Shown: piece after piece, positions 1 through 48,949 of the stretch | Layout: the number at the start of each line of letters is the position of its first letter | Position numbering within the stretch: position 1 is the stretch's first letter | Assembly: GCA_050287605.1 (NCBI GenBank) | Contig: JBNKCG010000026.1 | Location: 76,123 to 140,122 of the forward strand | Direction: 5' to 3' | DNA from: Gammaproteobacteria bacterium | GTDB lineage: Bacteria; Pseudomonadota; Gammaproteobacteria; QQUJ01 | Length of the DNA: 64,000 nucleotides | Position numbers and translations under genes: made by a program | The notes under the pieces: generated by a model | Database searches by the model: none | What the model was told of the DNA's origin: nothing | The model's input: only the letters and a program-made list of their open reading frames with translations

Positions 1-1459
1 GGTCCACTTCCAGCCCCAGCCGCTGAAACAACTCCGCGTTCTCCTCCGCCAGGTCCGCTTCGCGCCGCGCAACCGAAAGACGTTCCGGTACCAGCAGCGG
101 CTGGCTGGTGACCGCGGCTGACTGCCACGCCTCCTTGAGCCGCTCGTAGGTGATGCGCTCGTGGGCGGCGTGCATGTCCACAACCACCAACCCCGCAGCG
201 TTTTGCGCCAGGACGTAAATACCGTGCAACTGCGCCACGGCATACCCCAGGGGAGGTCCCACATCGGCGGCGGGCTGCGCTGACTCCTGCAACACCGGCG
301 CATCATCCACCGCCTGCAACGCGGCGTAGGCGGCGGCCTGATCGCGCACCGGCAACGCCATGCCTTGCTGACGCGGCACCGGGTACGCCGGGGTGGGCGC
401 AGCACCGGTTGGCCGCTCCCCGCTCGTGGCGGCAGCGGGTCGGGGCGGATCGGCCTCCGGACGCACCGCTCGCAACGCGCCGTGCACGGAAGCGAACAAA
501 AAGTCGTGCACCAGATTCGACTGGCGAAAACGCACTTCGTGCTTGGCGGGGTGGACGTTGACGTCCACCGCCGCAGGGTCCATTTCCAGGTAGAGCAGGT
601 AGGCCGGGTGCCGGCCGTGGTAGAGCACGTCCTGGTAGGCCTGGCGCACCGCATGCGTCACCAGCCGGTCGCGCACCATGCGCCCGTTGACGAAGAAGTA
701 CTGCAGATCGGCCTGGGCGCGCGAGAAGGTCGGCAAAGCAATCCAGCCGCGCAACCGCAGTCCCGCACCTTCCTGGTCGACCGCGACGGACTGTTCCAGA
801 AACCCGCCCCCGAACAGTTCCGCCACCCGCCGCTCACGATCCTGCGGCCGTTCCGCCGCCGGCATCTGCAGCATTGCGCGGCCATTGTGGCGCAGTGTGA
901 TGCCGGCGCCGTAGCGACTCATGGCGGCACGTCGCACTACGGTGTCAATGTGGGAAAACTCGGTCTTTTCGCTGCGCAGGAACTTGCGCCGCGCTGGCGT
1001 GTTGTAGAACAGATCGCGCACCTCCACCACGGTCCCGGCCGGCAACGCCGCTGGCTGCGGGGGCATCGGCTGGTGATTGGCACCGAGCACGATCTCCCAG
1101 CCACGTTCTGCGTCCGTTTCCCGGGACGCGAGGCGCAATTGGGCGATGGAGGCGATGCTGGCGAGCGCCTCGCCGCGAAAACCCAGGCTCGCCACCCGCT
1201 CCAACTCGTCGAGGCTTTGAATCTTGCTGGTCGCATGCGAACTCAGCGCCAGCGGCAGGTCGTCGGGGTGGATACCGCAACCGTTGTCGCGCACCCGGAT
1301 CAGTGCCACGCCCCCCTGCTCGATCTCCACGTCGATGCGTGTCGCGCCGGCATCCAGGCTGTTCTCCAGCAGCTCTTTGACCACCGAGGCCGGCCGCTCG
1401 ATCACCTCGCCGGCGGCGATCTGGTTGATGAGCTGCTGGGGAAGTTGGTGTATGCGCAT
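1..1459 (-). CDS. mutL: DNA mismatch repair protein MutL (3' end runs off the window)
   Basis: Manual translation from ATG at 1459: MRIHQLPQQLINQIAAGEVIERPASVVKELLENSLDAGATRIDVEIEQGGVALIRVRDNGCGI (GHKL ATPase), later GFRGEAL; lies directly downstream of amiB as in the conserved operon. Absent from the ORF track because the stop lies outside the window. Confidence 0.98.
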   Translation of the reverse strand, partial: MRIHQLPQQLINQIAAGEVIERPASVVKELLENSLDAGATRIDVEIEQGGVALIRVRDNGCGIHPDDLPLALSSHATSKIQSLDELERVASLGFRGEALASIASIAQLRLASRETDAERGWEIVLGANHQPMPPQPAALPAGTVVEVRDLFYNTPARRKFLRSEKTEFSHIDTVVRRAAMSRYGAGITLRHNGRAMLQMPAAERPQDRERRVAELFGGGFLEQSVAVDQEGAGLRLRGWIALPTFSRAQADLQYFFVNGRMVRDRLVTHAVRQAYQDVLYHGRHPAYLLYLEMDPAAVDVNVHPAKHEVRFRQSNLVHDFLFASVHGALRAVRPEADPPRPAAATSGERPTGAAPTPAYPVPRQQGMALPVRDQAAAYAALQAVDDAPVLQESAQPAADVGPPLGYAVAQLHGIYVLAQNAAGLVVVDMHAAHERITYERLKEAWQSAAVTSQPLLVPERLSVARREADLAEENAELFQRLGLEVD

Positions 1460-1505
1460 GCGACCCGTACGGATGGCGACAAACCGCCATTGTAGCGGGC
1501 CGTAG

Positions 1506-2819
1506 CTAGTTGGTCATGGTGACCGAGTCACGAGGGATGCGCAGCACCGTCCCCACCGACAGGACGTCGCCGTCCAGGCCGTTAGCCTCGCGCAGGCTGT
1601 GCAGGCTGACTTGGTAGCGGCGCGCGATCCCGGAGAGGGTCTCGCCATGGCGGATAACGTGCTTGCTCTGCGCGAGCAGCGAATCCGGCGGCGCCTTTTC
1701 GGCGAAGTAGGCGCGCACCCCCTCCATGATGGCGCGAGCGACCTTCTCCTGGTGCGCCGAACTGCGCAGATTACGCTCTTCGGTGGGGTTGGAAATGAAC
1801 GCGGTCTCCACCAGTACCGAGGGCACGTCCGGCGATTTGAGGACCACGAAACCCGCCTGCTGGATCCGGCGCGAGTGCAACCGCCCCACCTTGCCGAGGT
1901 TGTTGCGGATTTGGCCGGCCACCTCCAGGCTGTCCTCGATGGTCGCCGACTGGGAAAGGTCCAGCAGTACGGTCTTCAACAGATCATCCTTGTCTTCCAG
2001 ACTCACGCCGCCGATACGGTCGGCCGCGTTTTCCTGTTCGGCCAGAAAGGCGGCTGCCGCGTTGGACGCGCCACGCTCGGACAGGACAAAGACCGAGGAG
2101 CCGCGCGCGCGATGATCGTTGAAGGCATCGGCGTGGATGGAGATCAGCAGATCGGCCTTCGCCTCGCGCGCCTTGGCATAGCGATCCTTGAGGCCGATGT
2201 AGTAGTCGCCTTCGCGGATCATCAGTGGGCGCATGCCGTATTCCTGCTTGACCATGCGCTCCAGGCGCTGGGCGATCTGGAACACCACATCCTTCTCCCG
2301 CGTCCCCTTGCGACCGAGGGCGCCGGGATCCTCACCGCCGTGACCCGCGTCGATGGCCACCACGATCTCGCGCGGCCCTGCAGCGGTACTACTCTCCGCC
2401 CGCGTTACCTTGGGCACAACGCTGCCGCCTTGGGCATCGTAAAGATCGATCACCAGGCGATGGCCGTATTTCTCGTTGGGTTTGAGGAGGAAGCTCTTCG
2501 GCCGCACCGGGCCGCTGAGATCAAAGACCACCCGCAGGTCGTCGCCATTGCGGGGGGAGTAGCGAACCGAACGCAACAGCGGGGAATTGGTATCCGGCGT
2601 CGGAACGTCGGTGCTCAGTTGCGCGTTTTTCAGGTCAACCACGATGCGGTCGGGATTGCGCAGGGGAAACAGTGCGTGCTCCACCGGTGCGTCGATATCG
2701 AACACGATGCGGGTGTTGTCCGGCGCCGCCCACAGGCGGATGCCGTCGACATGCGCGGTCTGCGCCTGACCGAAAACGGGCAGCAGCAGAAGCAGCAGGG
2801 AGGCAAGGGTTCTTTTCAT
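1506..2819 (-). CDS. amiB: N-acetylmuramoyl-L-alanine amidase (AMIN + Amidase_3 + LysM)
   Basis: Signal peptide MKRTLASLLLLLLPVFGQA; IDAGHGGEDPGA, ISIHAD and SVLVETAFISN motifs; C-terminal LysM (HVIRHGETLSGIARRY). Start set at ATG 2819. amiB versus amiC naming rests on synteny. Confidence 0.92.
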   Translation of the reverse strand: MKRTLASLLLLLLPVFGQAQTAHVDGIRLWAAPDNTRIVFDIDAPVEHALFPLRNPDRIVVDLKNAQLSTDVPTPDTNSPLLRSVRYSPRNGDDLRVVFDLSGPVRPKSFLLKPNEKYGHRLVIDLYDAQGGSVVPKVTRAESSTAAGPREIVVAIDAGHGGEDPGALGRKGTREKDVVFQIAQRLERMVKQEYGMRPLMIREGDYYIGLKDRYAKAREAKADLLISIHADAFNDHRARGSSVFVLSERGASNAAAAFLAEQENAADRIGGVSLEDKDDLLKTVLLDLSQSATIEDSLEVAGQIRNNLGKVGRLHSRRIQQAGFVVLKSPDVPSVLVETAFISNPTEERNLRSSAHQEKVARAIMEGVRAYFAEKAPPDSLLAQSKHVIRHGETLSGIARRYQVSLHSLREANGLDGDVLSVGTVLRIPRDSVTMTN

Positions 2820-2930
2820 GCCGGTGCGTCGGTCGGTTCTTTGTGGCCTGTTATGGCACAGAACCACTTATTGCGCAAGTTTTTCCTGATAAAACGACAG
2901 GATAGCTGCTCTTTCTAGAAATCTCCTGAA

Positions 2931-3416
2931 TTATGAGTCCGCCGCCGCCATCCCCTGCTGCAGAGCGTTCAGCACCGCCTCGCCGCGCGCGCTGAGCGCC
3001 TCCAGCCTCGCTTCGCGCCCCGGCGTTGCATACTCCAGGCCGATGCTGATATCCGGCGGAGGCAGCCAGTCTCCACCCTTCTCGGGCCATTCGATCACCA
3101 CCAGCGCTCCCGGCTCCAGCAGGTCGCGCAACCCCAGGTACTCCAGTTCCTCCGGGTCGGCGAGGCGGTAGAGATCGAGGTGAAACACGCGTCGGCCCGC
3201 CACCTCGTAGGGTTCGATGAGCGTGTAGGTGGGGCTTTTCACTGCGCCGCGGTAGCCGAGGGCACGCAACAGACCACGGGTCAGAGTGGTCTTGCCGGTG
3301 CCCAGCGCACCGCTGAGATGTACCACCAACCCACCCCCGGTGACTGCCTGCGCGAGTTCCGTGCCCAGACCGTGCGTCGCCGCTTCGTCGGCTAAAGTCC
3401 GCACCCAGGCAATCAT
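2931..3416 (-). CDS. tsaE: tRNA t6A biosynthesis ATPase TsaE
   Basis: LSGALGTGKTT Walker A, VKSPTYTLIEPY, HLDLYRL, VIEWPE; start MIAWVRTL overlaps the nnr stop. Confidence 0.97.
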   Translation of the reverse strand: MIAWVRTLADEAATHGLGTELAQAVTGGGLVVHLSGALGTGKTTLTRGLLRALGYRGAVKSPTYTLIEPYEVAGRRVFHLDLYRLADPEELEYLGLRDLLEPGALVVIEWPEKGGDWLPPPDISIGLEYATPGREARLEALSARGEAVLNALQQGMAAADS

Positions 3417-12327: not shown

Positions 12328-12439
12328 GGCGGCCCATACCAGCCACACCCCGGCACACGAGGCCACTGCTGCCGCTGCTCCCTTCCGGGCCTGACGGGGT
12401 TCACAGTTTATCGTTGCGGGGGGACCGGCATGGTCCGCC
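12328..12439 (-). ncRNA. ffs: Signal recognition particle RNA (4.5S, small bacterial SRP)
   Basis: Reverse complement contains the conserved domain IV TCAGGCCCGGAAGGGAGCAGC; terminal stem GGCGGACCATGCC...GGTATGGGCCGCC; canonical position upstream of dnaX. Confidence 0.95.
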
Positions 12440-31112: not shown

Positions 31113-31606
<494 letters not shown>

Positions 31607-41357: not shown

Positions 41358-41915
41358 TCAGTTGGGGATCACCACCGTGTCGATGACGTGGATGATGCCG
41401 TTGCCGGTGGCGATATCCGTCTTGATGATGTTGGCACCGTCGACCTTCGCCCCGCTCGCCGAACTACCCACCGTCAGCATCGAGCCCTGCACCGTCTTGA
41501 GCTGGTTCATGCCCACCACCGCCTTGGCCTCCAAGCGCCCCGGTACCACGTGGTAGGTCAGGATCTGGGACAGCTTTTCCTTGTCGGCCAGCAGCGCCTC
41601 GACGGTGCCCGCCGGCAGTTTGGCAAAGGCTTCGTCCGTGGGGGCAAACACGGTGAACGGTCCAGGCCCCTTCAACACCTCCACCAACCCCGCCGCCTTG
41701 ACCGCGGCAACCAGGGTATTGAAGGAACCCGCCGCAACGGCGGCGTCCACGACATCGGCGTGCATTTCAACGGCACCTGTCTTGACCGTACCGTATTCGT
41801 GGTACGACTTCATGTTTCCGCCGGCCTGCGCCGGCGCGGAGATGGCCGCCGCGACCAACAGGCCTGCACCGGCAACCGTCGACAACGAAGTTTTGCGTTC
41901 GAATAACTTGACCAT
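41358..41915 (-). CDS. Secreted fasciclin (FAS1) domain protein
   Basis: Signal peptide; [42 protein letters not shown]; RBS GAGGAG. Confidence 0.95.
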
Positions 41916-41986
41916 TTTACGTCTCCTCAAAGTCTTTGGATCACACTTGGATTACTGTCGTCTCGGTTTGAAACAGCTGCAGTCAA

Positions 41987-42027
41987 ACCTTGGACATAAG
42001 TTATACATTACTTGTACAGATTGTCAA
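41987..42027. promoter_or_regulatory. Three tandem 11-bp CarH-type direct repeats overlapping a minus-strand TTGACA-16-TATAAC promoter for the fasciclin gene
   Basis: acctTGGACAt-aagtTATACAt-tactTGTACAg at 41987/41998/42009; -35 at 42022-42027 and -10 at 42000-42005 on the minus strand. Confidence 0.8.
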
Positions 42028-42151
42028 TACCATACTAAATAAATTGGGTAATAACCGCCTATTACCTGACATATTACACTGATATCATGGCATTAGTCGT
42101 CAGTTACTATTGATACAAACATTGTGCAATTTGTAAAATCAGCGCTCAGTA

Positions 42152-42179
42152 TTGACGGAAAAGATAATTCTTGTATAAC
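42152..42179 (+). promoter_or_regulatory. Sigma-70 promoter for carH-phrB (TTGACG-16-TATAAC)
   Basis: ttgacg-gaaaagataattcttg-tataac, about 28 nt upstream of ATG 42208. Confidence 0.65.
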
Positions 42180-42207
42180 TTTCATAACCCCTTATGCCGA
42201 GCACCCC

Positions 42208-43134
42208 ATGAATGCCACACCGGCCGTTGATGACGTCGATGACCTGAGCGAACGCGGGCTCTATCCCATTCGCACCGTTTCTACCCTCACCGGCGTCAAC
42301 TCGGTCACCCTGCGGGCCTGGGAGCGGCGCTACGCGCTGATCCAGCCACGGCGTACGGCGAAAGGTCATCGCCTCTACACGCAGCAGGACATCGATCGCA
42401 TCAACAGCATCCTGCAACTGCTGGACAGGGGCATACCCATCAGCCAGGTCAAACACCGCCTAACGGGCAACGCGCGGACCGGCGCCGCAGCCCAGGAGGC
42501 GGGACCTTGGGAGCAGTTCCAGCAACGCATGCTCAACGCGGTGGTGCGATTCGACGAAAGCGCCCTGAGCGAGATCTACAACGAAGCGCTCTCCATCTAC
42601 CCCATCGACCGGGTAACCCAGCGATTGATCATTCCGCTGCTGCGCACCCTGGGCGAACGGTGGGCATCCACCGAGGGCAGCGTGGCCGAGGAGCACCTTT
42701 TCGGCAGTTTCCTGCGCAACAAACTGGGCGCACGCTTTCACCACCAAGGGCGTCGCAACCACGGGCCCAGGCTGGTAGCGGCCTGCCTGCCGGGAGAACA
42801 CCACGAAGTGGGATTGCTGCTGTTCTGCCTCGCCGCGCTGGAGCACGACTATCAGATCGTGCTCCTGGGTGCCGACCTCCCCCTGGAGGAGCTGCCTACG
42901 GTCGTGCAACGCACCGCAGCCAGTGCCATCGTTCTGTCCGGATCCATGACCGTTCTGCCCACTGCACTGCAAGAGGGACTGACACGGCTGATGCAGCAGA
43001 TCGACGTACCGGTGCTCATCGGCGGGGAGACATCCATCGCGCATCACGACGCCATCGTGCGCGCGGGCGCCGTCCCGGTGGGCAACGACATCGCCCACGC
43101 GCTCCGCCAACTGGACGGACTGGCGGGGGCCTGA
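42208..43134 (+). CDS. Cobalamin-dependent photoreceptor/repressor of the CarH/LitR type (MerR HTH + B12-binding domain)
   Basis: MerR HTH (TLRAWERRY..PRRTAKGHRLY), W-x9-EH motif (WASTEGSVAEEH), ExHxxG motif (EHHEVG), LGADLP. Confidence 0.9.
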   Translation: MNATPAVDDVDDLSERGLYPIRTVSTLTGVNSVTLRAWERRYALIQPRRTAKGHRLYTQQDIDRINSILQLLDRGIPISQVKHRLTGNARTGAAAQEAGPWEQFQQRMLNAVVRFDESALSEIYNEALSIYPIDRVTQRLIIPLLRTLGERWASTEGSVAEEHLFGSFLRNKLGARFHHQGRRNHGPRLVAACLPGEHHEVGLLLFCLAALEHDYQIVLLGADLPLEELPTVVQRTAASAIVLSGSMTVLPTALQEGLTRLMQQIDVPVLIGGETSIAHHDAIVRAGAVPVGNDIAHALRQLDGLAGA

Positions 43135-43161: not shown

Positions 43162-44607
43162 GTGTCCACAGCCATCGTCTGGTTTCGCCGCGACCTGCGA
43201 CTCGCGGATCACGCACCACTGCGCGCAGCATTGCGCGAGTCGGATAGCCTGGTACCGGTCTACGTCCACGACCCCCGTTGCGACGGATCGTGGGCGGCGG
43301 GAAGCGCATCGCGCTGGTGGTTGCATCACAGCCTGGAATCGTTGGATGCACAGCTGCGGCACCGGGGGTCACGCCTCGTCGTGCGCAGCGGAGACAGCGT
43401 GGAAAGCCTCGTCACCCTGGCCCAACAAACCGGCGCGACCCGCCTCTACTACCACAGCGTTCCCGAGCCGACGCAGGTGGCCCTGGAGCAGCGCATCACC
43501 GCACGGCTATCAGCCCTGGGTATCGCAGTTCACCGTTTTCGCGCAGCACTGCTCCACGATCCGGAGCGACTGCGCAGCGGAAGCGGCACCCCCTATCGCG
43601 TCTTTACGGCCTTCTGGACGGCCTGCCGACAGCTGCCGTCGCCCGGACGCCCGCTACCGGCACCGCGACAAGTACAGCCACTCCCGTCCGTCCTCGACAC
43701 AGCGTCCATTTCCAGCCTGGATCTGCTGCCGCGGACCCGATGGGATGGCGGTCTTGCAGACACCTGGCAACCGGGAGAACCGCAGGCGCTGCGGCTACTG
43801 AACACCTTTGCGGCATCCACCGTCGCCGGGTACCCCGACACCCGCGACACCCCGGCAGCCGCCGGCACCTCGCGGCTCTCCGCAGCACTGCACTTCGGCG
43901 AAATCACGCCGCGCCAAGCATTCGAATGCGTCCAAACCAGCGACGCCACACCCAGCGGCGCAGCGCAATCCTATCTGCGTCAGTTGGGCTGGCGGGAATT
44001 TGCCCACTACCTGCTGCACCACTTTCCGCACACCCCGGATCAGCCGTTGAACCCGCGTTTCCGCCATTTTCCCTGGCGCAAGCGGCACGACGACCTACTG
44101 AACGCCTGGCAGCGCGGCGCGACGGGGATCCCTCTGGTGGATGCCGGCATGCGCGAGCTGTGGCAGACCGGCGGGATGCACAACCGTCTACGCATGGTGA
44201 CAGCCTCGTTTCTCACCAAGAACCTGCGCATCCCCTGGCAGGCGGGCGCGCGCTGGTTCTGGGACACGCTGGTGGATGCCGACCTCGCCAACAACACCCT
44301 GGGCTGGCAATGGGTGGCCGGCTGCGGGGCCGACGCCGCCCCCTATTTCAGGATTTTCAATCCGGTGTTGCAGGGGATGAAATTCGACGCGGAAGGACGT
44401 TACGTGCGCCACTGGGTGCCGGAACTCGCCGCCCTGCCGGACCGTTGGCTGCACCGGCCGTGGAAGGCGTCGCAGAGGGTACTCGAATCAGCGGGTGTCA
44501 CGCTGGGGAGCGACTACCCACGGCCGGTGGTCGATCTGGCCGTCACCCGGCGTGAAGCCCTGATGGCCTACGATCGCATCCGGCAACCCCCGGTGCAGCG
44601 AACATGA
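43162..44607 (+). CDS. phrB: Class I CPD photolyase
   Basis: VWFRRDLRLAD, TSRLSAALHFGEI, WREF, TGIPLVDAGMRELWQTGGMHNRLRM, DADLANN, APYFRIFNP. Confidence 0.96.
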   Translation: MSTAIVWFRRDLRLADHAPLRAALRESDSLVPVYVHDPRCDGSWAAGSASRWWLHHSLESLDAQLRHRGSRLVVRSGDSVESLVTLAQQTGATRLYYHSVPEPTQVALEQRITARLSALGIAVHRFRAALLHDPERLRSGSGTPYRVFTAFWTACRQLPSPGRPLPAPRQVQPLPSVLDTASISSLDLLPRTRWDGGLADTWQPGEPQALRLLNTFAASTVAGYPDTRDTPAAAGTSRLSAALHFGEITPRQAFECVQTSDATPSGAAQSYLRQLGWREFAHYLLHHFPHTPDQPLNPRFRHFPWRKRHDDLLNAWQRGATGIPLVDAGMRELWQTGGMHNRLRMVTASFLTKNLRIPWQAGARWFWDTLVDADLANNTLGWQWVAGCGADAAPYFRIFNPVLQGMKFDAEGRYVRHWVPELAALPDRWLHRPWKASQRVLESAGVTLGSDYPRPVVDLAVTRREALMAYDRIRQPPVQRT

Positions 44608-45353
44608 CCTCCCTGCGCTACATGGGGGCCATCGTGCTGCTGGTCACGCTTGCGCCGCTACTGGCATTGCAGGGCCGGTACCTGCGCCGCCACGCCGTGC
44701 GTCTGCCGCCGGCCCGGGGCGAGCGCAACGGCATCGAACCGGGTGGACCGCCAGCCCTCGACCTCCTGGTCTTGGGCGAATCCACCGCCGCGGGGGTGGG
44801 TGTGTCCACCCATCGCGAATCCCTCGTCGGCCAGACGGCCATCGCCTTGGGCAGGCAACTGCAACGCGAAATCCGCTGGGAGGTCGCCGGTCTCAACGGC
44901 CTGACCGCGGGGCGCGCTGCAGCGACGCTGTTCCCCTGGGTCGAGCGACGCCGAGCAACCGTCGCGGTGCTGGCACTGGGCGTCAACGACACCCTGGCGC
45001 TGCGCACGCCACGGCACTGGCTGGCGCAGCTACGAGCGCTGATCGAGGGCGTACACGTCGAATTTCAACCGCAGCTCGTCGTGGTCTGCGCCATCCCACC
45101 GGTGGGCCGCTTCCCCGCCATCCCCCGTCCGCTGCGGACGTTGTTCGGGCTGGTGGCAGGTAGTCTGGACGCGGCGACCCGCGCGGCGTTGCGCGACCGC
45201 GGCGATATCCTGTACGTGCCCCTGCCCAGGGAGCTGCAAAGCAACCCCGAGTACATGGGCAGTGATGGGTTTCATCCGTCGGCAGCGGGGTACGCGGTGT
45301 GGGGTGGTCTGCTGGCCCGAGCCATCGCGGACCACGAGGTCAAAGTAAACTAG
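44604..45353 (+). CDS. SGNH/GDSL hydrolase
   Basis: LGESTAAG, LGVNDT, DGFHPS; ATGA overlap with the phrB stop. Confidence 0.88.
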   Translation: MTSLRYMGAIVLLVTLAPLLALQGRYLRRHAVRLPPARGERNGIEPGGPPALDLLVLGESTAAGVGVSTHRESLVGQTAIALGRQLQREIRWEVAGLNGLTAGRAAATLFPWVERRRATVAVLALGVNDTLALRTPRHWLAQLRALIEGVHVEFQPQLVVVCAIPPVGRFPAIPRPLRTLFGLVAGSLDAATRAALRDRGDILYVPLPRELQSNPEYMGSDGFHPSAAGYAVWGGLLARAIADHEVKVN

Positions 45354-45442: not shown

Positions 45443-47905
45443 TCAGTGGTCGTGGGAGTGATTGGCCGCCGAGTGCGGCTTCTTGCCCAGAATATTGGTC
45501 AGCGCCTGATCCAGCAGTGACTTCTCGTCGATCAGTTTGGCCGAACCGCGCCTAAACTCCAGGGCCAGACCCCTCTTGGTACGGTCGGTCACCTTCATGC
45601 CGTGGCGGTTGGTGAAGAGATAGCTGCCGGTGAGCGGGCTGATCCAGGAGAGCTTGCCGCGCAACGTGGTGCCGTCGGGGCGCGTGAACTCGATCCAGGT
45701 GCCCTTCTTCATGCGCTCGACGATTCCAAGGTAGCGCTCCTCGGAATCCGACTGCGGCTCGGGCGCCGGCTGCGGATCGCCGATGGTGATCTCTTCGATC
45801 TCCACCTGTGCCTGGTTTTCCCGCAGGTTCTCCATCAGCTCTTCGTAGCGCTGGCGCCGTTCTTCGGTCTGCTCTTCCTTGCGCGCCTCCTCCACGGGCT
45901 CCGAAAAGTCCGCGTAGGACATCACCTCTTCGGCGGTCAGTTCCTGTTCCGCGGCCAGCTCGGGAACGACCGACGCGATATCCAGCTTGTACGCTTCGAT
46001 ACCCGTCAGCTTGTCGCGTTCGGCGTCCATGGCCTGCTGCTTCTGATCGGCCTCGAACTGCGCCTGTTGAGTACGCCCGTCGCTCAGCGCCTGCGAGTGA
46101 CACAACTTGAGATCGGCCAGGAAGGCGTGACGTGACGCTTCGGGCATGGAGGCCATCTCCATGCCCTCCTGCAACCCTTCCAGCAACCAACCCAACGCAC
46201 CGACCAACCGCTGGCGTTCGCGATCAGTACGTTTGGGTTGCACGCTCCACAGCAAGGTATCCATGGTTTCGATGCAGCGCCGCCAGTTGTTGCCCTCTTC
46301 GCCTTCACGCAGAAAGTAGAGCAGCAACACCGTGTACCAGTGATCGCGCAGGAACTCGGCCACCGGCTGCGGCGGCGCCTGCTTGATGACGCGGCAGTCG
46401 ATCTCGTCGCGTACGATCACCTTGGCCATCATGACCCGCTCTTCGCCTTCCAACGCCTTGGCGGAGCGCTCCTCCACGCGTTCGGCGCGGTTTTGCTCGT
46501 GCTCCAGGTAGTCGCTGAGGCGATCGGCCAGCTCGGCAAACAGGGCGATGTCGTCGGAAAAATCGCGCAACACCGTCTCCACCACCTCTTCGACCTCGGC
46601 GTAGAGACTGCCTTCGGTGCGCGGCTCGCTCTCCTGCCAACCGGTGGCGGCACGCGCCACCGTATCCAGCAGCCGGCGCGAGGGATGGTTGCGCGAGGCG
46701 AAAAACGCCTTGTCGATGATGGCGACCTTGAGGACCGGGATCTGCAGGCGGCCGATAAGCGCCTTCATTGCCGGCGCAACGTTTTCGTTATCCAGGATGT
46801 AATCGAAGATCAGCGCAACGATGTCGATGGTCACACCGTCGGCGCGAACCAAGGGCTGCAGGTCCGGTGCGGACTTGATGTCACGCAAAACGTTGACCGT
46901 ACCGCTGACCAGTTGCCCCGCATCAAAGCTGCCGCTGAGACCGCCAACCCCCTGGCCGTGCTGCATGGCAGTCAAGGCATCCACCGCAGGGCCCAGCACC
47001 GCGGGAGCCAACGACACGCCACCCACGGGCGGAACACCGACAGCACCCGGGACGGCACCGGTCACGTAGTGCTGCAGCGCGTGGTAGAGGTTGATCTCGC
47101 CGCTGGTGTAGCCCGGCTGTTCGAATGCCCCGGACAAGTCGCTGGTTTGGGGTGGTGCGGCAGGCGTCATGGGCGGACGCTGGTAAGCGGGCCGTTTAAC
47201 CTGGTGGTTGATGACGGGAAGAATGTTGTTGTTGATCAGATACTGGTTGATCGCCAGGTAGAGTGCCTGCAAACCGGGGATCGCCAGCTTGTCGAACAGT
47301 TTCAGGACGATCAGTTTCGCTTTGACGTCGACGTTGATGTCGTGGCAAGCGTCGCGGAAAGCACCGCAGATCACCTCAGGACCGATGGGGTTGTCCTCGT
47401 TCTTGAGCTCTTTGCGACGCAGAATAAGTTGCAACCGCTGCTCCAGCTCGAACAGCTCCCGATGACAGGTGCTGCGTACCTTGCTGGCCATGCTGCTGGC
47501 GGCCAGCGACTCCTCCAGGTCTGCGTGTTCGATCAGGCTCAGGGAAAGACTGCTGTCGCCGGCATGCATCCCGGTGGTCGGGCTGTGCTTGCGCTTGACC
47601 ACCTCGGCGAAGCGCTCCATGAAGAGTTGGCGGGTGCGACGTTCGATCTCGCTGCGGCGGCGGCGTATCTCGCGCATGGCGTCGAAGTAAATCGTCTGTT
47701 CGGAGTCGCTGATCGCTTTATCAGCGCGTTCGAACAGCGTGTCATCCACTTTGTCCAGGGTCGCTGAGACAGCGCCGGTCAAGTATTCGGCAACACGATC
47801 ACGACATTCGGTAAGCACCCGCTTCGCCTCTATCGACCCGATGCCGCCCCGTTCACGATTGTAGCGGCGTAGATCCACGACTTTTCCCGTTTCGCCCGCA
47901 CTCAT
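45443..47905 (-). CDS. DUF1631-family protein
   Basis: Large helical protein with LIGRLQIPVLKVAIIDKAFF..HPSRRLLD and C-terminal GTWIEF..KLSWISP..YLFTN. Confidence 0.8.
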   Translation of the reverse strand: MSAGETGKVVDLRRYNRERGGIGSIEAKRVLTECRDRVAEYLTGAVSATLDKVDDTLFERADKAISDSEQTIYFDAMREIRRRRSEIERRTRQLFMERFAEVVKRKHSPTTGMHAGDSSLSLSLIEHADLEESLAASSMASKVRSTCHRELFELEQRLQLILRRKELKNEDNPIGPEVICGAFRDACHDINVDVKAKLIVLKLFDKLAIPGLQALYLAINQYLINNNILPVINHQVKRPAYQRPPMTPAAPPQTSDLSGAFEQPGYTSGEINLYHALQHYVTGAVPGAVGVPPVGGVSLAPAVLGPAVDALTAMQHGQGVGGLSGSFDAGQLVSGTVNVLRDIKSAPDLQPLVRADGVTIDIVALIFDYILDNENVAPAMKALIGRLQIPVLKVAIIDKAFFASRNHPSRRLLDTVARAATGWQESEPRTEGSLYAEVEEVVETVLRDFSDDIALFAELADRLSDYLEHEQNRAERVEERSAKALEGEERVMMAKVIVRDEIDCRVIKQAPPQPVAEFLRDHWYTVLLLYFLREGEEGNNWRRCIETMDTLLWSVQPKRTDRERQRLVGALGWLLEGLQEGMEMASMPEASRHAFLADLKLCHSQALSDGRTQQAQFEADQKQQAMDAERDKLTGIEAYKLDIASVVPELAAEQELTAEEVMSYADFSEPVEEARKEEQTEERRQRYEELMENLRENQAQVEIEEITIGDPQPAPEPQSDSEERYLGIVERMKKGTWIEFTRPDGTTLRGKLSWISPLTGSYLFTNRHGMKVTDRTKRGLALEFRRGSAKLIDEKSLLDQALTNILGKKPHSAANHSHDH

Positions 47906-48049
47906 GGTCTTCACCCGTCAGGACGCCGCGCGGCGGTGCACCGCGCTTTCGAATATATGTGTACCACTGATCAATTCCACAAAACGTGATAAGGCACTCA
48001 AATTTTTGGGGGTTATATAGGGTAGTCTCCCAATCAGGATTATCCATCA

Positions 48050-48949
48050 ATGACAGCGGGTGGTTCGATGAATCAAGCAACCGAACTGCGTAAGCAACAC
48101 CACCCAGAGATCGCGCGCCTCATCGAGGAGACCCGCGACCTGGTCTCTCCACCCGACGTGCACTTTGCGCTGCTGGAGGTCCTCAACGACCCCGCTTCCA
48201 CCAGCAGCGACATGGCCGAGGTGATCGCTCTCGATCCGGCCCTGACGGCCCGGCTGCTGCGCATCGTCAACAGTCCCTATTACGGCTTGGTGCGCCGCGT
48301 CGACACCATCTCGCGGGCGGTCACGATAATCGGCAGCAACGAGCTGTTCAATCTTGCGGTAGCTGTGTCGGCGACCTCGGTTTTCGCGCGCCTCCCCGGT
48401 TCGCTGGTCAATATGGACAACTTCTGGCATCACAGCGTCTACACCGCCATGGTGGGCCGCGAACTGGCCAAGATCTGCAACGTTCTGCACCCCGACCGTC
48501 TGTTCGTGGGTGGCATGCTCCACGATATCGGCAGCCTGCTGCTGTATAACGAACGCCCGGAGACCATGGCCGAACTCTTGCTGGTGGCGCAAGGCGACGA
48601 GGAGCTGATGTTCCACGCCGAACTAAACCGCCTAGGATTCAGCCACGCGGAAGTGGCCGCGGGAATTCTCGATCTTTGGCAACTTCCGCCGGTATTGTGT
48701 GCAGCGGTGGGCGCGCACCACACCCCGCTGGACAGTACCGAACCCACGCCCGAGGCGTGCATACTCTACGTCGCCGACTTCCTGGCCAATCGCTCCGAGC
48801 GCGGCGGTTTCGCTGCCGAAACCCAACCCAAGGGCACCATGGACGAAGCGGTGCTGAAACACCTGGGCATCGGCGCCAAAGAACTCGTCCCGGCAGCCGA
48901 AGCAGCAACGGCGAAGTTTGACGAGAGCATCGCGATGTTTTTGCCGTAA
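48050..48949 (+). CDS. HDOD-domain protein
   Basis: DPALTARLLRIVNSPYY, FWHHS, GMLHDIGSLLL, HAEVAAGILDLWQLP. Confidence 0.9.
   Translation: MTAGGSMNQATELRKQHHPEIARLIEETRDLVSPPDVHFALLEVLNDPASTSSDMAEVIALDPALTARLLRIVNSPYYGLVRRVDTISRAVTIIGSNELFNLAVAVSATSVFARLPGSLVNMDNFWHHSVYTAMVGRELAKICNVLHPDRLFVGGMLHDIGSLLLYNERPETMAELLLVAQGDEELMFHAELNRLGFSHAEVAAGILDLWQLPPVLCAAVGAHHTPLDSTEPTPEACILYVADFLANRSERGGFAAETQPKGTMDEAVLKHLGIGAKELVPAAEAATAKFDESIAMFLP

Follow-up and report, generated by a model that had tools for sequence, protein, structure and literature searches.

A 292-bp intergenic region (41916-42207) separates two divergent genes in the 64-kb stretch of DNA analyzed here, which we refer to as the window. 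The region is AT-rich, with a GC content of 37% compared to roughly 65% for the genome. A gene for a fasciclin (FAS1) protein lies to its left, and a gene for a B12-binding regulator of the MerR type, followed by two further genes on the same strand, lies to its right. The features of the locus are:

41358..41915, minus strand: fas, encoding a single-domain FAS1 (fasciclin) protein of 185 aa (Pfam PF02469, 3.2e-39)
41987..42019, plus strand: predicted CarH operator of three tandem 11-bp direct repeats, nnnnTnnACAn (motif scan and published consensus)
41991-96, plus strand: first direct repeat (DR1), TGGACA, starting at 41991
42002-07, plus strand: second direct repeat (DR2), TATACA, starting at 42002, 11 bp after DR1
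42013-18, plus strand: third direct repeat (DR3), TGTACA, starting at 42013, 11 bp after DR2
42024..42029, plus strand: fourth, pseudo-repeat TCAATA with one mismatch, keeping the 11-bp register and lying over the -35 element; the triple counted from 42002 scores 11/12
42000..42027, minus strand: predicted sigma-70-type fasciclin promoter TTGACA-16-TATAAC, -35 from 42027 to 42022 and -10 from 42005 to 42000
42112..42128, plus strand: near-repeat pair GATACA-N5-TGTGCA, one mismatch in each, upstream of the carH -35 element
42152..42179 (region to 42188), plus strand: carH promoter TTGACG-16-TATAAC, a module of the fasciclin-promoter type
42208..43134, plus strand: carH, 308 aa, MerR-type DNA-binding domain, B12-binding four-helix bundle and Rossmann-like domain (Pfam, structure match)
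43162..44607, plus strand: phr, photolyase-family gene directly after carH (Pfam DNA_photolyase and FAD_binding_7)
44604..45353, plus strand: GDSL/SGNH hydrolase gene, its start overlapping the phr stop by 4 bp (Pfam, ORF positions)

The carH product carries all sequence hallmarks of CarH and, judged by these, is a CarH-type regulator and a predicted class I LitR photoreceptor-repressor. Its N-terminal region matches Pfam MerR_1 (2e-17, residues 19-85) and aligns with the DNA-binding domain of Thermus CarH. The B12-binding four-helix bundle is recognized as B12-binding_2 (PF02607, 51.3 bits, cutoff 23) while B12-binding (PF02310) scores 29.4 bits, just below the gathering cutoff of 32.1. Residues 13-273 match Thermus thermophilus CarH (3whp, 5c8d) at about 7e-35 (6.5e-35). 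In CarH, Wx9EH makes room for the upper-axial adenosyl group, while the lower-axial His ligand comes from ExHxxG. A preliminary description of this DNA had attributed both motifs to the regulator and both were found: Wx9EH reads WASTEGSVAEEH (W152-x9-E162-H163) and ExHxxG reads EHHEVG (E197-x-H199-xxG). They occupy the same alignment columns as the Thermus CarH motifs and are invariant in 21 homologues. The best-scoring NCBIfam model is the CarH equivalog NF052513, yet it reaches 157.5 bits against a cutoff of 400 bits, which marks the protein as a divergent family member and not an equivalog of reference CarH.

The genes downstream of carH point to a small operon. The best NCBIfam matches of the phr product are cryptochrome/CPD-photolyase models, all below cutoff, and carH-phr synteny is kept in relatives. 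Given the 4-bp overlap with the phr stop, the carH-phr operon probably extends to the GDSL/SGNH hydrolase gene as a third, uncharacterized and light-regulated member; this gene follows carH-phr in all syntenic relatives with enough downstream sequence.

The intergenic region contains a complete match to the CarH operator consensus. Published CarH operators consist of tandem 11-bp nnnnTnnACAn repeats overlapping the -35 or -10 element, and arrangements of three direct repeats and one pseudo-repeat are on record (PMC9304148). Repeat numbers differ, with three in the case of Thermus CarH and either four or three and a pseudo-repeat in the case of Bacillus CarH, while myxobacterial CarH still binds operators with one or two repeats and pseudo-repeats (PMC9304148). 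The triple at 41991, 42002 and 42013 matches all 12 of 12 specified positions, and our motif scan agreed with the preliminary description that the three TnnACA elements stand in exact 11-bp register. It is the single match to (TnnACA-N5)x2-TnnACA on both strands of the window. No perfect triple arose in 100 dinucleotide shuffles of the 64-kb window. Because the intergenic region is AT-rich, significance was re-tested at local composition, and one perfect triple was obtained in 20,000 mononucleotide shuffles of the 292-bp region (P ~5e-5).

The repeats are superimposed on a predicted promoter aimed at the fasciclin gene. The TTGACA-16-TATAAC promoter named in the preliminary description (TTGACAATCTGTACAAGTAATGTATAACTTATGTCCA) was recovered by a scripted count on the minus strand with a 16-nt spacer; our consensus promoter scan demanded a final T in the -10 element and consequently did not list it. 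The -10 element is overlapped by DR2 and the -35 element by the pseudo-repeat, with DR3 in the spacer and DR1 where transcription is expected to start. The repeats are located 76 bp upstream of the fasciclin ATG, and the transcription start is predicted near 41993. A plus-strand promoter over the repeats, which would make them a carH operator, was looked for and none was found, the sole plus-strand consensus match being at 42110-42139. The 78-nt fasciclin leader contains no RNA element detectable with Rfam at gathering thresholds.

The carH promoter itself is poorly provided with repeats in the window. Only its central repeat is intact (TATACA, minus strand, 42172-77), giving a dr-DR-dr arrangement that scores 6/12. 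Upstream of the carH -35 element, a TnTACA-N5-TGTACA pair on the carH sense strand is kept in all seven syntenic lineages described below, including the two that lack the fasciclin gene (L087 3032-3048; L094 956-972; L085 4818-4834; L091 2559-2575). Its counterpart in the window, the near-repeat pair at 42112-42128, coincides with a promoter-like TTGATA-18-TAAAAT match. The pair may represent an auxiliary CarH site.

Seven syntenic lineages with 68-88% CarH identity were compared. The divergent fasciclin gene is present in five of them and absent from L085/86 and L091-93. In an alignment of the five lineages, the operator and promoter block is the best-conserved stretch of the intergenic region. 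TGTCAA and GTTATA, corresponding to the -35 and -10 hexamers, are invariant, DR2 is nearly so (4/5 lineages), and DR1 and DR3 drift. The sequence AACCTTG at 41986-41992, just past the fasciclin -10 element at the start of the leader, is likewise invariant in the five lineages and is not required by the CarH consensus. The repeat scores of the two divergent promoters are:

Window: fas promoter 12/12, carH promoter 6/12
L090 (closest relative): fas promoter 12/12 (perfect triple), carH promoter 7/12
L087: fas promoter 10/12, carH promoter 8/12
L083: fas promoter 9/12, carH promoter 9/12
L094: fas promoter 9-10/12, carH promoter 12/12 (perfect triple)

The fasciclin operator is thus eroded in three of four syntenic relatives (L087, L083 and L094). 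As the repeats erode while the hexamers and AACCTTG stay, part of the conservation reflects the promoter and leader and not CarH contacts, and conservation is no proof of selection on every repeat. The reciprocal scores suggest that repeats turn over between two promoters sharing one regulator. An extra ORF of 123 aa, with no Pfam matches and no counterpart in the window, follows the fasciclin gene in one of these lineages (P0005; L081-L084, 3302-3673).

The layout of the fasciclin promoter recurs at the carH promoters of distant relatives. For this comparison, representative genomes provided 80 carH loci, the CarH proteins being 43-61% identical. Sites scoring at least 11/12 were found nearly exclusively within 400 bp upstream of carH; 22 of the 80 loci possess such a site there, in 20 cases on the strand opposite carH. 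Read on the sense strand, these carH promoters show TTGACA, a short gap, TGTnnA-N5-TGTATAA, another short gap and TGTACA, and those of L002, L015 and L071 are nearly superimposable on the fasciclin promoter of the window. This shared layout identifies the fasciclin promoter as a carH-type promoter-operator module. A few 11/12 triples are located far from carH (L042 8248-8275; L050 2543-2570 and 2771-2798; L021 5712-5739) and may represent further regulon promoters.

The gene pair, as distinct from the operator layout, is not general. Within 4 kb of carH, a FAS1 gene is present in 0 of the 80 loci taken from representative genomes, and the link thus does not characterize this CarH clade as a whole. 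General carH-fasciclin synteny is ruled out: the arrangement holds only in the window's own clade (5/7 lineages) and recurs separately elsewhere. Such recurrences were found from the FAS1 side. As a search for FAS1 homologues was swamped by two-domain planctomycete FAS1 proteins, an alignment of syntenic orthologues was used for the metagenome scan, which provided 80 metagenomic loci with the closest FAS1 relatives (median length 3.8 kb, many incomplete). Ten of these 80 encode a CarH/LitR-like protein within 3 kb. Full MerR and B12-binding proteins are found in four of the ten (L105, L107, L110, L145) and an HTH_17 and B12-binding protein in L157; in L097, L156 and L158 CarH-like N-termini are cut by contig ends, and L114 and L153 encode MerR proteins with an unrecognized C-terminal domain. 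In a rough control, the carH query matched nothing else in the window; across the 80 genome loci, with 668 kb of sequence in total, only three carH paralogues were found beside carH itself. With one or two carH genes per genome, we infer that well under 1% of random 4-kb loci would be expected to contain one.

The organization of these neighborhoods varies. In the GC-rich contigs L105 (288-1794) and L107 (about 1360-3296), the FAS1 gene precedes a co-oriented carH, and the gap of 40 bp in L105 suggests a fas-carH operon. The two genes are divergent in L145, L156 and L153. Between them, L156 contains a perfect TTGACA/TCTACA/TATACA triple and L153 an 11/12 site together with TGTACA-N16-TGTACA. 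In L110 (810-6268), carH is divergent from an array of orf178, the FAS1 gene, a polyprenyl synthase gene (crtE-like) and an amine oxidase gene (crtI-like), with clusters of TnnACA repeats (10-11/12) next to carH; the FAS1 gene is thus situated inside a carotenoid cluster. Photolyase-family genes are present in four further metagenomic FAS1 loci (L099, L117, L147, L172). One of these, L099 (160-3405), encodes a photolyase, GTP cyclohydrolase I (folE) and an HTH_3/cupin regulator divergent from FAS1, a set that resembles a light regulon without CarH. The MerR-HTH regulators beside FAS1 in L114 (1824-2894) and L153 (95-1129) share a C-terminal domain of roughly 250 aa with a conserved CECPxHL motif. 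The HTH is the only part of them recognized by Pfam and NCBIfam, and they may belong to a non-B12 LitR class (possibly class III).

The fas product is a single-domain FAS1 protein that is probably secreted. The FAS1 domain is complete (PF02469, 134 bits, profile positions 2-123 of 123), and the N-terminus reads as a putative Sec-type signal peptide ending in AQA that is conserved in orthologues. The protein also matches TGFBIp, periostin, Fdp and MPT70. Among relatives with a solved structure and a single domain, the closest is 1w7d (1.6e-37), a beta-Ig-H3/fasciclin chain of 137 residues that we take to be Rhodobacter sphaeroides Fdp, the length fitting mature Fdp. A relationship to AstaP, the carotenoid-binding secreted FAS1 protein of green algae, is also detectable (PDB 8c18, 4e-13) and is much more distant than that to Fdp.

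CarH/LitR regulons are usually described as comprising carotenoid genes and photolyase. In a full-text literature search, we found no link of fasciclin to CarH or LitR. FAS1 proteins do occur among genes responding to light or singlet oxygen. Among the genes listed with the RpoE regulon of R. sphaeroides is RSP_1409 (beta-Ig-H3/fasciclin); photooxidative stress raises its expression by a log2 fold change of 2.8-4.5 and induces photolyase as well (PMC7074977). This protein, RSP1409, is Fdp, an adherence-associated FAS1 protein (PMC7561615). For an Azospirillum brasilense fasciclin under RpoE-ChrR, a role in photooxidative stress and flocculation is quoted (Dubey et al. 2021, cited in PMC10949492). 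In addition, mpk83 and mpk70 of Mycobacterium kansasii are light-induced (PMC9861118) and sll1483 of Synechocystis is induced by 1O2 (bioRxiv 10.1101/2023.09.22.558817). Class II LitR regulators encoded beside photolyase drive small light-inducible regulons including phrB, folE and ufaM, and no fasciclin gene is named in that paper (PMC9758184).

The system combines features of several known circuits. Similar to the class I CarH/LitR systems of Thermus thermophilus, Bacillus megaterium and myxobacteria, it has 11-bp repeats, three and a pseudo-repeat, over a core promoter next to carH and a regulator with a MerR domain, a B12-binding module and the Wx9EH and ExHxxG motifs. It differs from them in its predicted target, the gene of a probably secreted FAS1 protein instead of carotenoid genes or carH itself, and in its host, an uncultured gammaproteobacterium. 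The -35 element falls within a sense-strand repeat in Thermus and Myxococcus, whereas the repeats here are antisense with the middle repeat over the -10 element, a layout common to the carH promoters of this proteobacterial clade. With the FAS1 proteins under RpoE(sigmaE)-ChrR in Rhodobacter (Fdp) and Azospirillum, the fas product shares a single FAS1 domain and, putatively, a signal peptide, but those are controlled by an ECF sigma/anti-sigma pair sensing singlet oxygen and not by a predicted B12-dependent light-sensing repressor. The class II/III LitR systems of Pseudomonas and Burkholderia likewise have a MerR/LitR-family regulator encoded beside photolyase; in contrast to the regulator described here, theirs is without a complete B12-binding module and relies on LOV partners or unknown sensing.

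Overall, the hallmarks of the regulator, the fit to the operator consensus, the carH layout of relatives and the recurrent FAS1 neighborhoods agree with the proposal of the preliminary description that a CarH operator sits on the fasciclin promoter, making fas a predicted direct target. We assign a probability of roughly 75% to the reading that AdoCbl-bound CarH blocks the fasciclin promoter in the dark and frees it on illumination, with FAS1 being co-induced with photolyase. In the dark, CarH bound to the operator would span the -35 element, spacer, -10 element and transcription start, and we propose that RNA polymerase would be excluded because all core promoter elements are covered. In the light, photolysis of the Co-C bond would cause the CarH oligomer to fall apart and leave the DNA. 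The freed near-consensus promoter would then fire, so that light would induce both the fasciclin gene and the divergent carH-photolyase-GDSL operon. Binding of CarH, repression of fas in the dark and its induction by light are predicted. By analogy to Rhodobacter Fdp and the Azospirillum fasciclin, a role of the protein in photooxidative-stress protection or aggregation is suggested.

One rival reading concerns the divergent operon. The repeats could be a CarH site mainly for carH-photolyase-GDSL, for example auxiliary to the weak site at the carH promoter 170 bp away, with any effect on fas being secondary or absent. Self-regulation is the commonest arrangement in the family, the carH promoter of the window has a single intact repeat, and the two promoters score reciprocally across the lineages as if one pool of sites served the region. 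Against this, the triple sits exactly on the -35 element, spacer, -10 element and start of a minus-strand promoter, 134 bp upstream of the carH -35 element, no plus-strand promoter overlaps it, and its geometry relative to fas is the geometry found relative to carH in relatives. A repressor bound at the triple would block fas transcription regardless, and we consider a site dedicated to the carH operon unlikely.

Alternatively, the conserved block could be a promoter and leader, or the site of another regulator, with the TnnACA periodicity a by-product of a promoter rich in TGTATAA and TGTACA and no CarH binding. This would account for the invariant positions being the two hexamers and AACCTTG and not every T and ACA, with DR1 and DR3 drifting. 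However, a perfect triple is very unlikely to arise by chance, this periodic motif also clusters upstream of carH across dozens of unrelated genomes, and CarH tolerates pseudo-repeats (PMC9304148), all of which makes an explanation without CarH improbable. A chance match in AT-rich intergenic DNA, finally, would be favored by the 37% GC content, which raises the frequency of T/A-rich hexamers; we rejected it on the shuffles of both the whole window and the AT-rich intergenic region. The single success in 20,000 composition-matched shuffles, the perfect triple in L090 and the family-wide layout render coincidence exceedingly improbable. An operator acting on the fasciclin promoter is our preferred reading.

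Two further claims of the preliminary description went too far. It had presented the fasciclin gene as a main light-induced output, but light presumably also regulates the carH-photolyase-GDSL operon, three of the four syntenic relatives have an eroded fasciclin operator and two further lineages lack the gene. It had also proposed an unrecognized role in envelope photoprotection, which is overstated since FAS1 proteins are already documented in the photooxidative or light regulons of Rhodobacter, Azospirillum, M. kansasii and Synechocystis. What appears to be new is the control of FAS1 by CarH.

With a direct CarH operator predicted at the gene of a probably secreted FAS1 protein, the CarH/LitR regulon would reach the cell envelope. 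FAS1 proteins would also be a point where unrelated light-stress circuits meet, one built on a B12 photoreceptor-repressor and the other being the singlet-oxygen switch sigmaE-ChrR. This convergence is the best current argument for a real photoprotective function of bacterial FAS1. The recurrent neighborhoods with photolyase, folE and crtE-crtI represent concrete leads to that function. More broadly, secreted single-domain FAS1 proteins could be a core output that bacterial responses to light and singlet oxygen have conserved whatever the regulator, wired in different lineages to CarH/LitR, sigmaE-ChrR or others, and their job could be to bind or shuttle carotenoids or oxidized lipids in the envelope instead of mediating adhesion. 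We regard this generalization as doubtful at present. Under it, the wiring may be CarH/LitR at this locus and in L105, L107, L110, L145 and L156, sigmaE-ChrR in Rhodobacter and Azospirillum, and another regulator in L099. A carotenoid-binding role is hinted at, speculatively, by the fas-crtE-crtI genes beside carH in L110 and by the distant relationship to AstaP. In practical terms, a compact near-consensus sigma-70 promoter with a full predicted CarH operator resembles the parts employed to control gene expression by light.

Elsewhere in the window, twenty predicted genes scanned at 22.8-26.7, 27.0-27.5, 31.7-37.2 and 48-63.4 kb are ordinary housekeeping genes with no other light-related genes among them, and the annotated part of the window contains neither an rpoE-chrR pair nor carotenoid genes. 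No cobalamin riboswitch was found in the window with Rfam at gathering thresholds; the sole Rfam matches are a bacterial small SRP RNA (12334-12430, minus strand) and one tRNA (31519-31606, minus strand). Downstream of the light operon lies a large gene of the DUF1631/PacR family (45443-47914, minus strand), its NCBIfam score of 281.8 bits being below cutoff. An HDOD-HD gene (48050-48949) comes next, and both are kept at this position in relatives.
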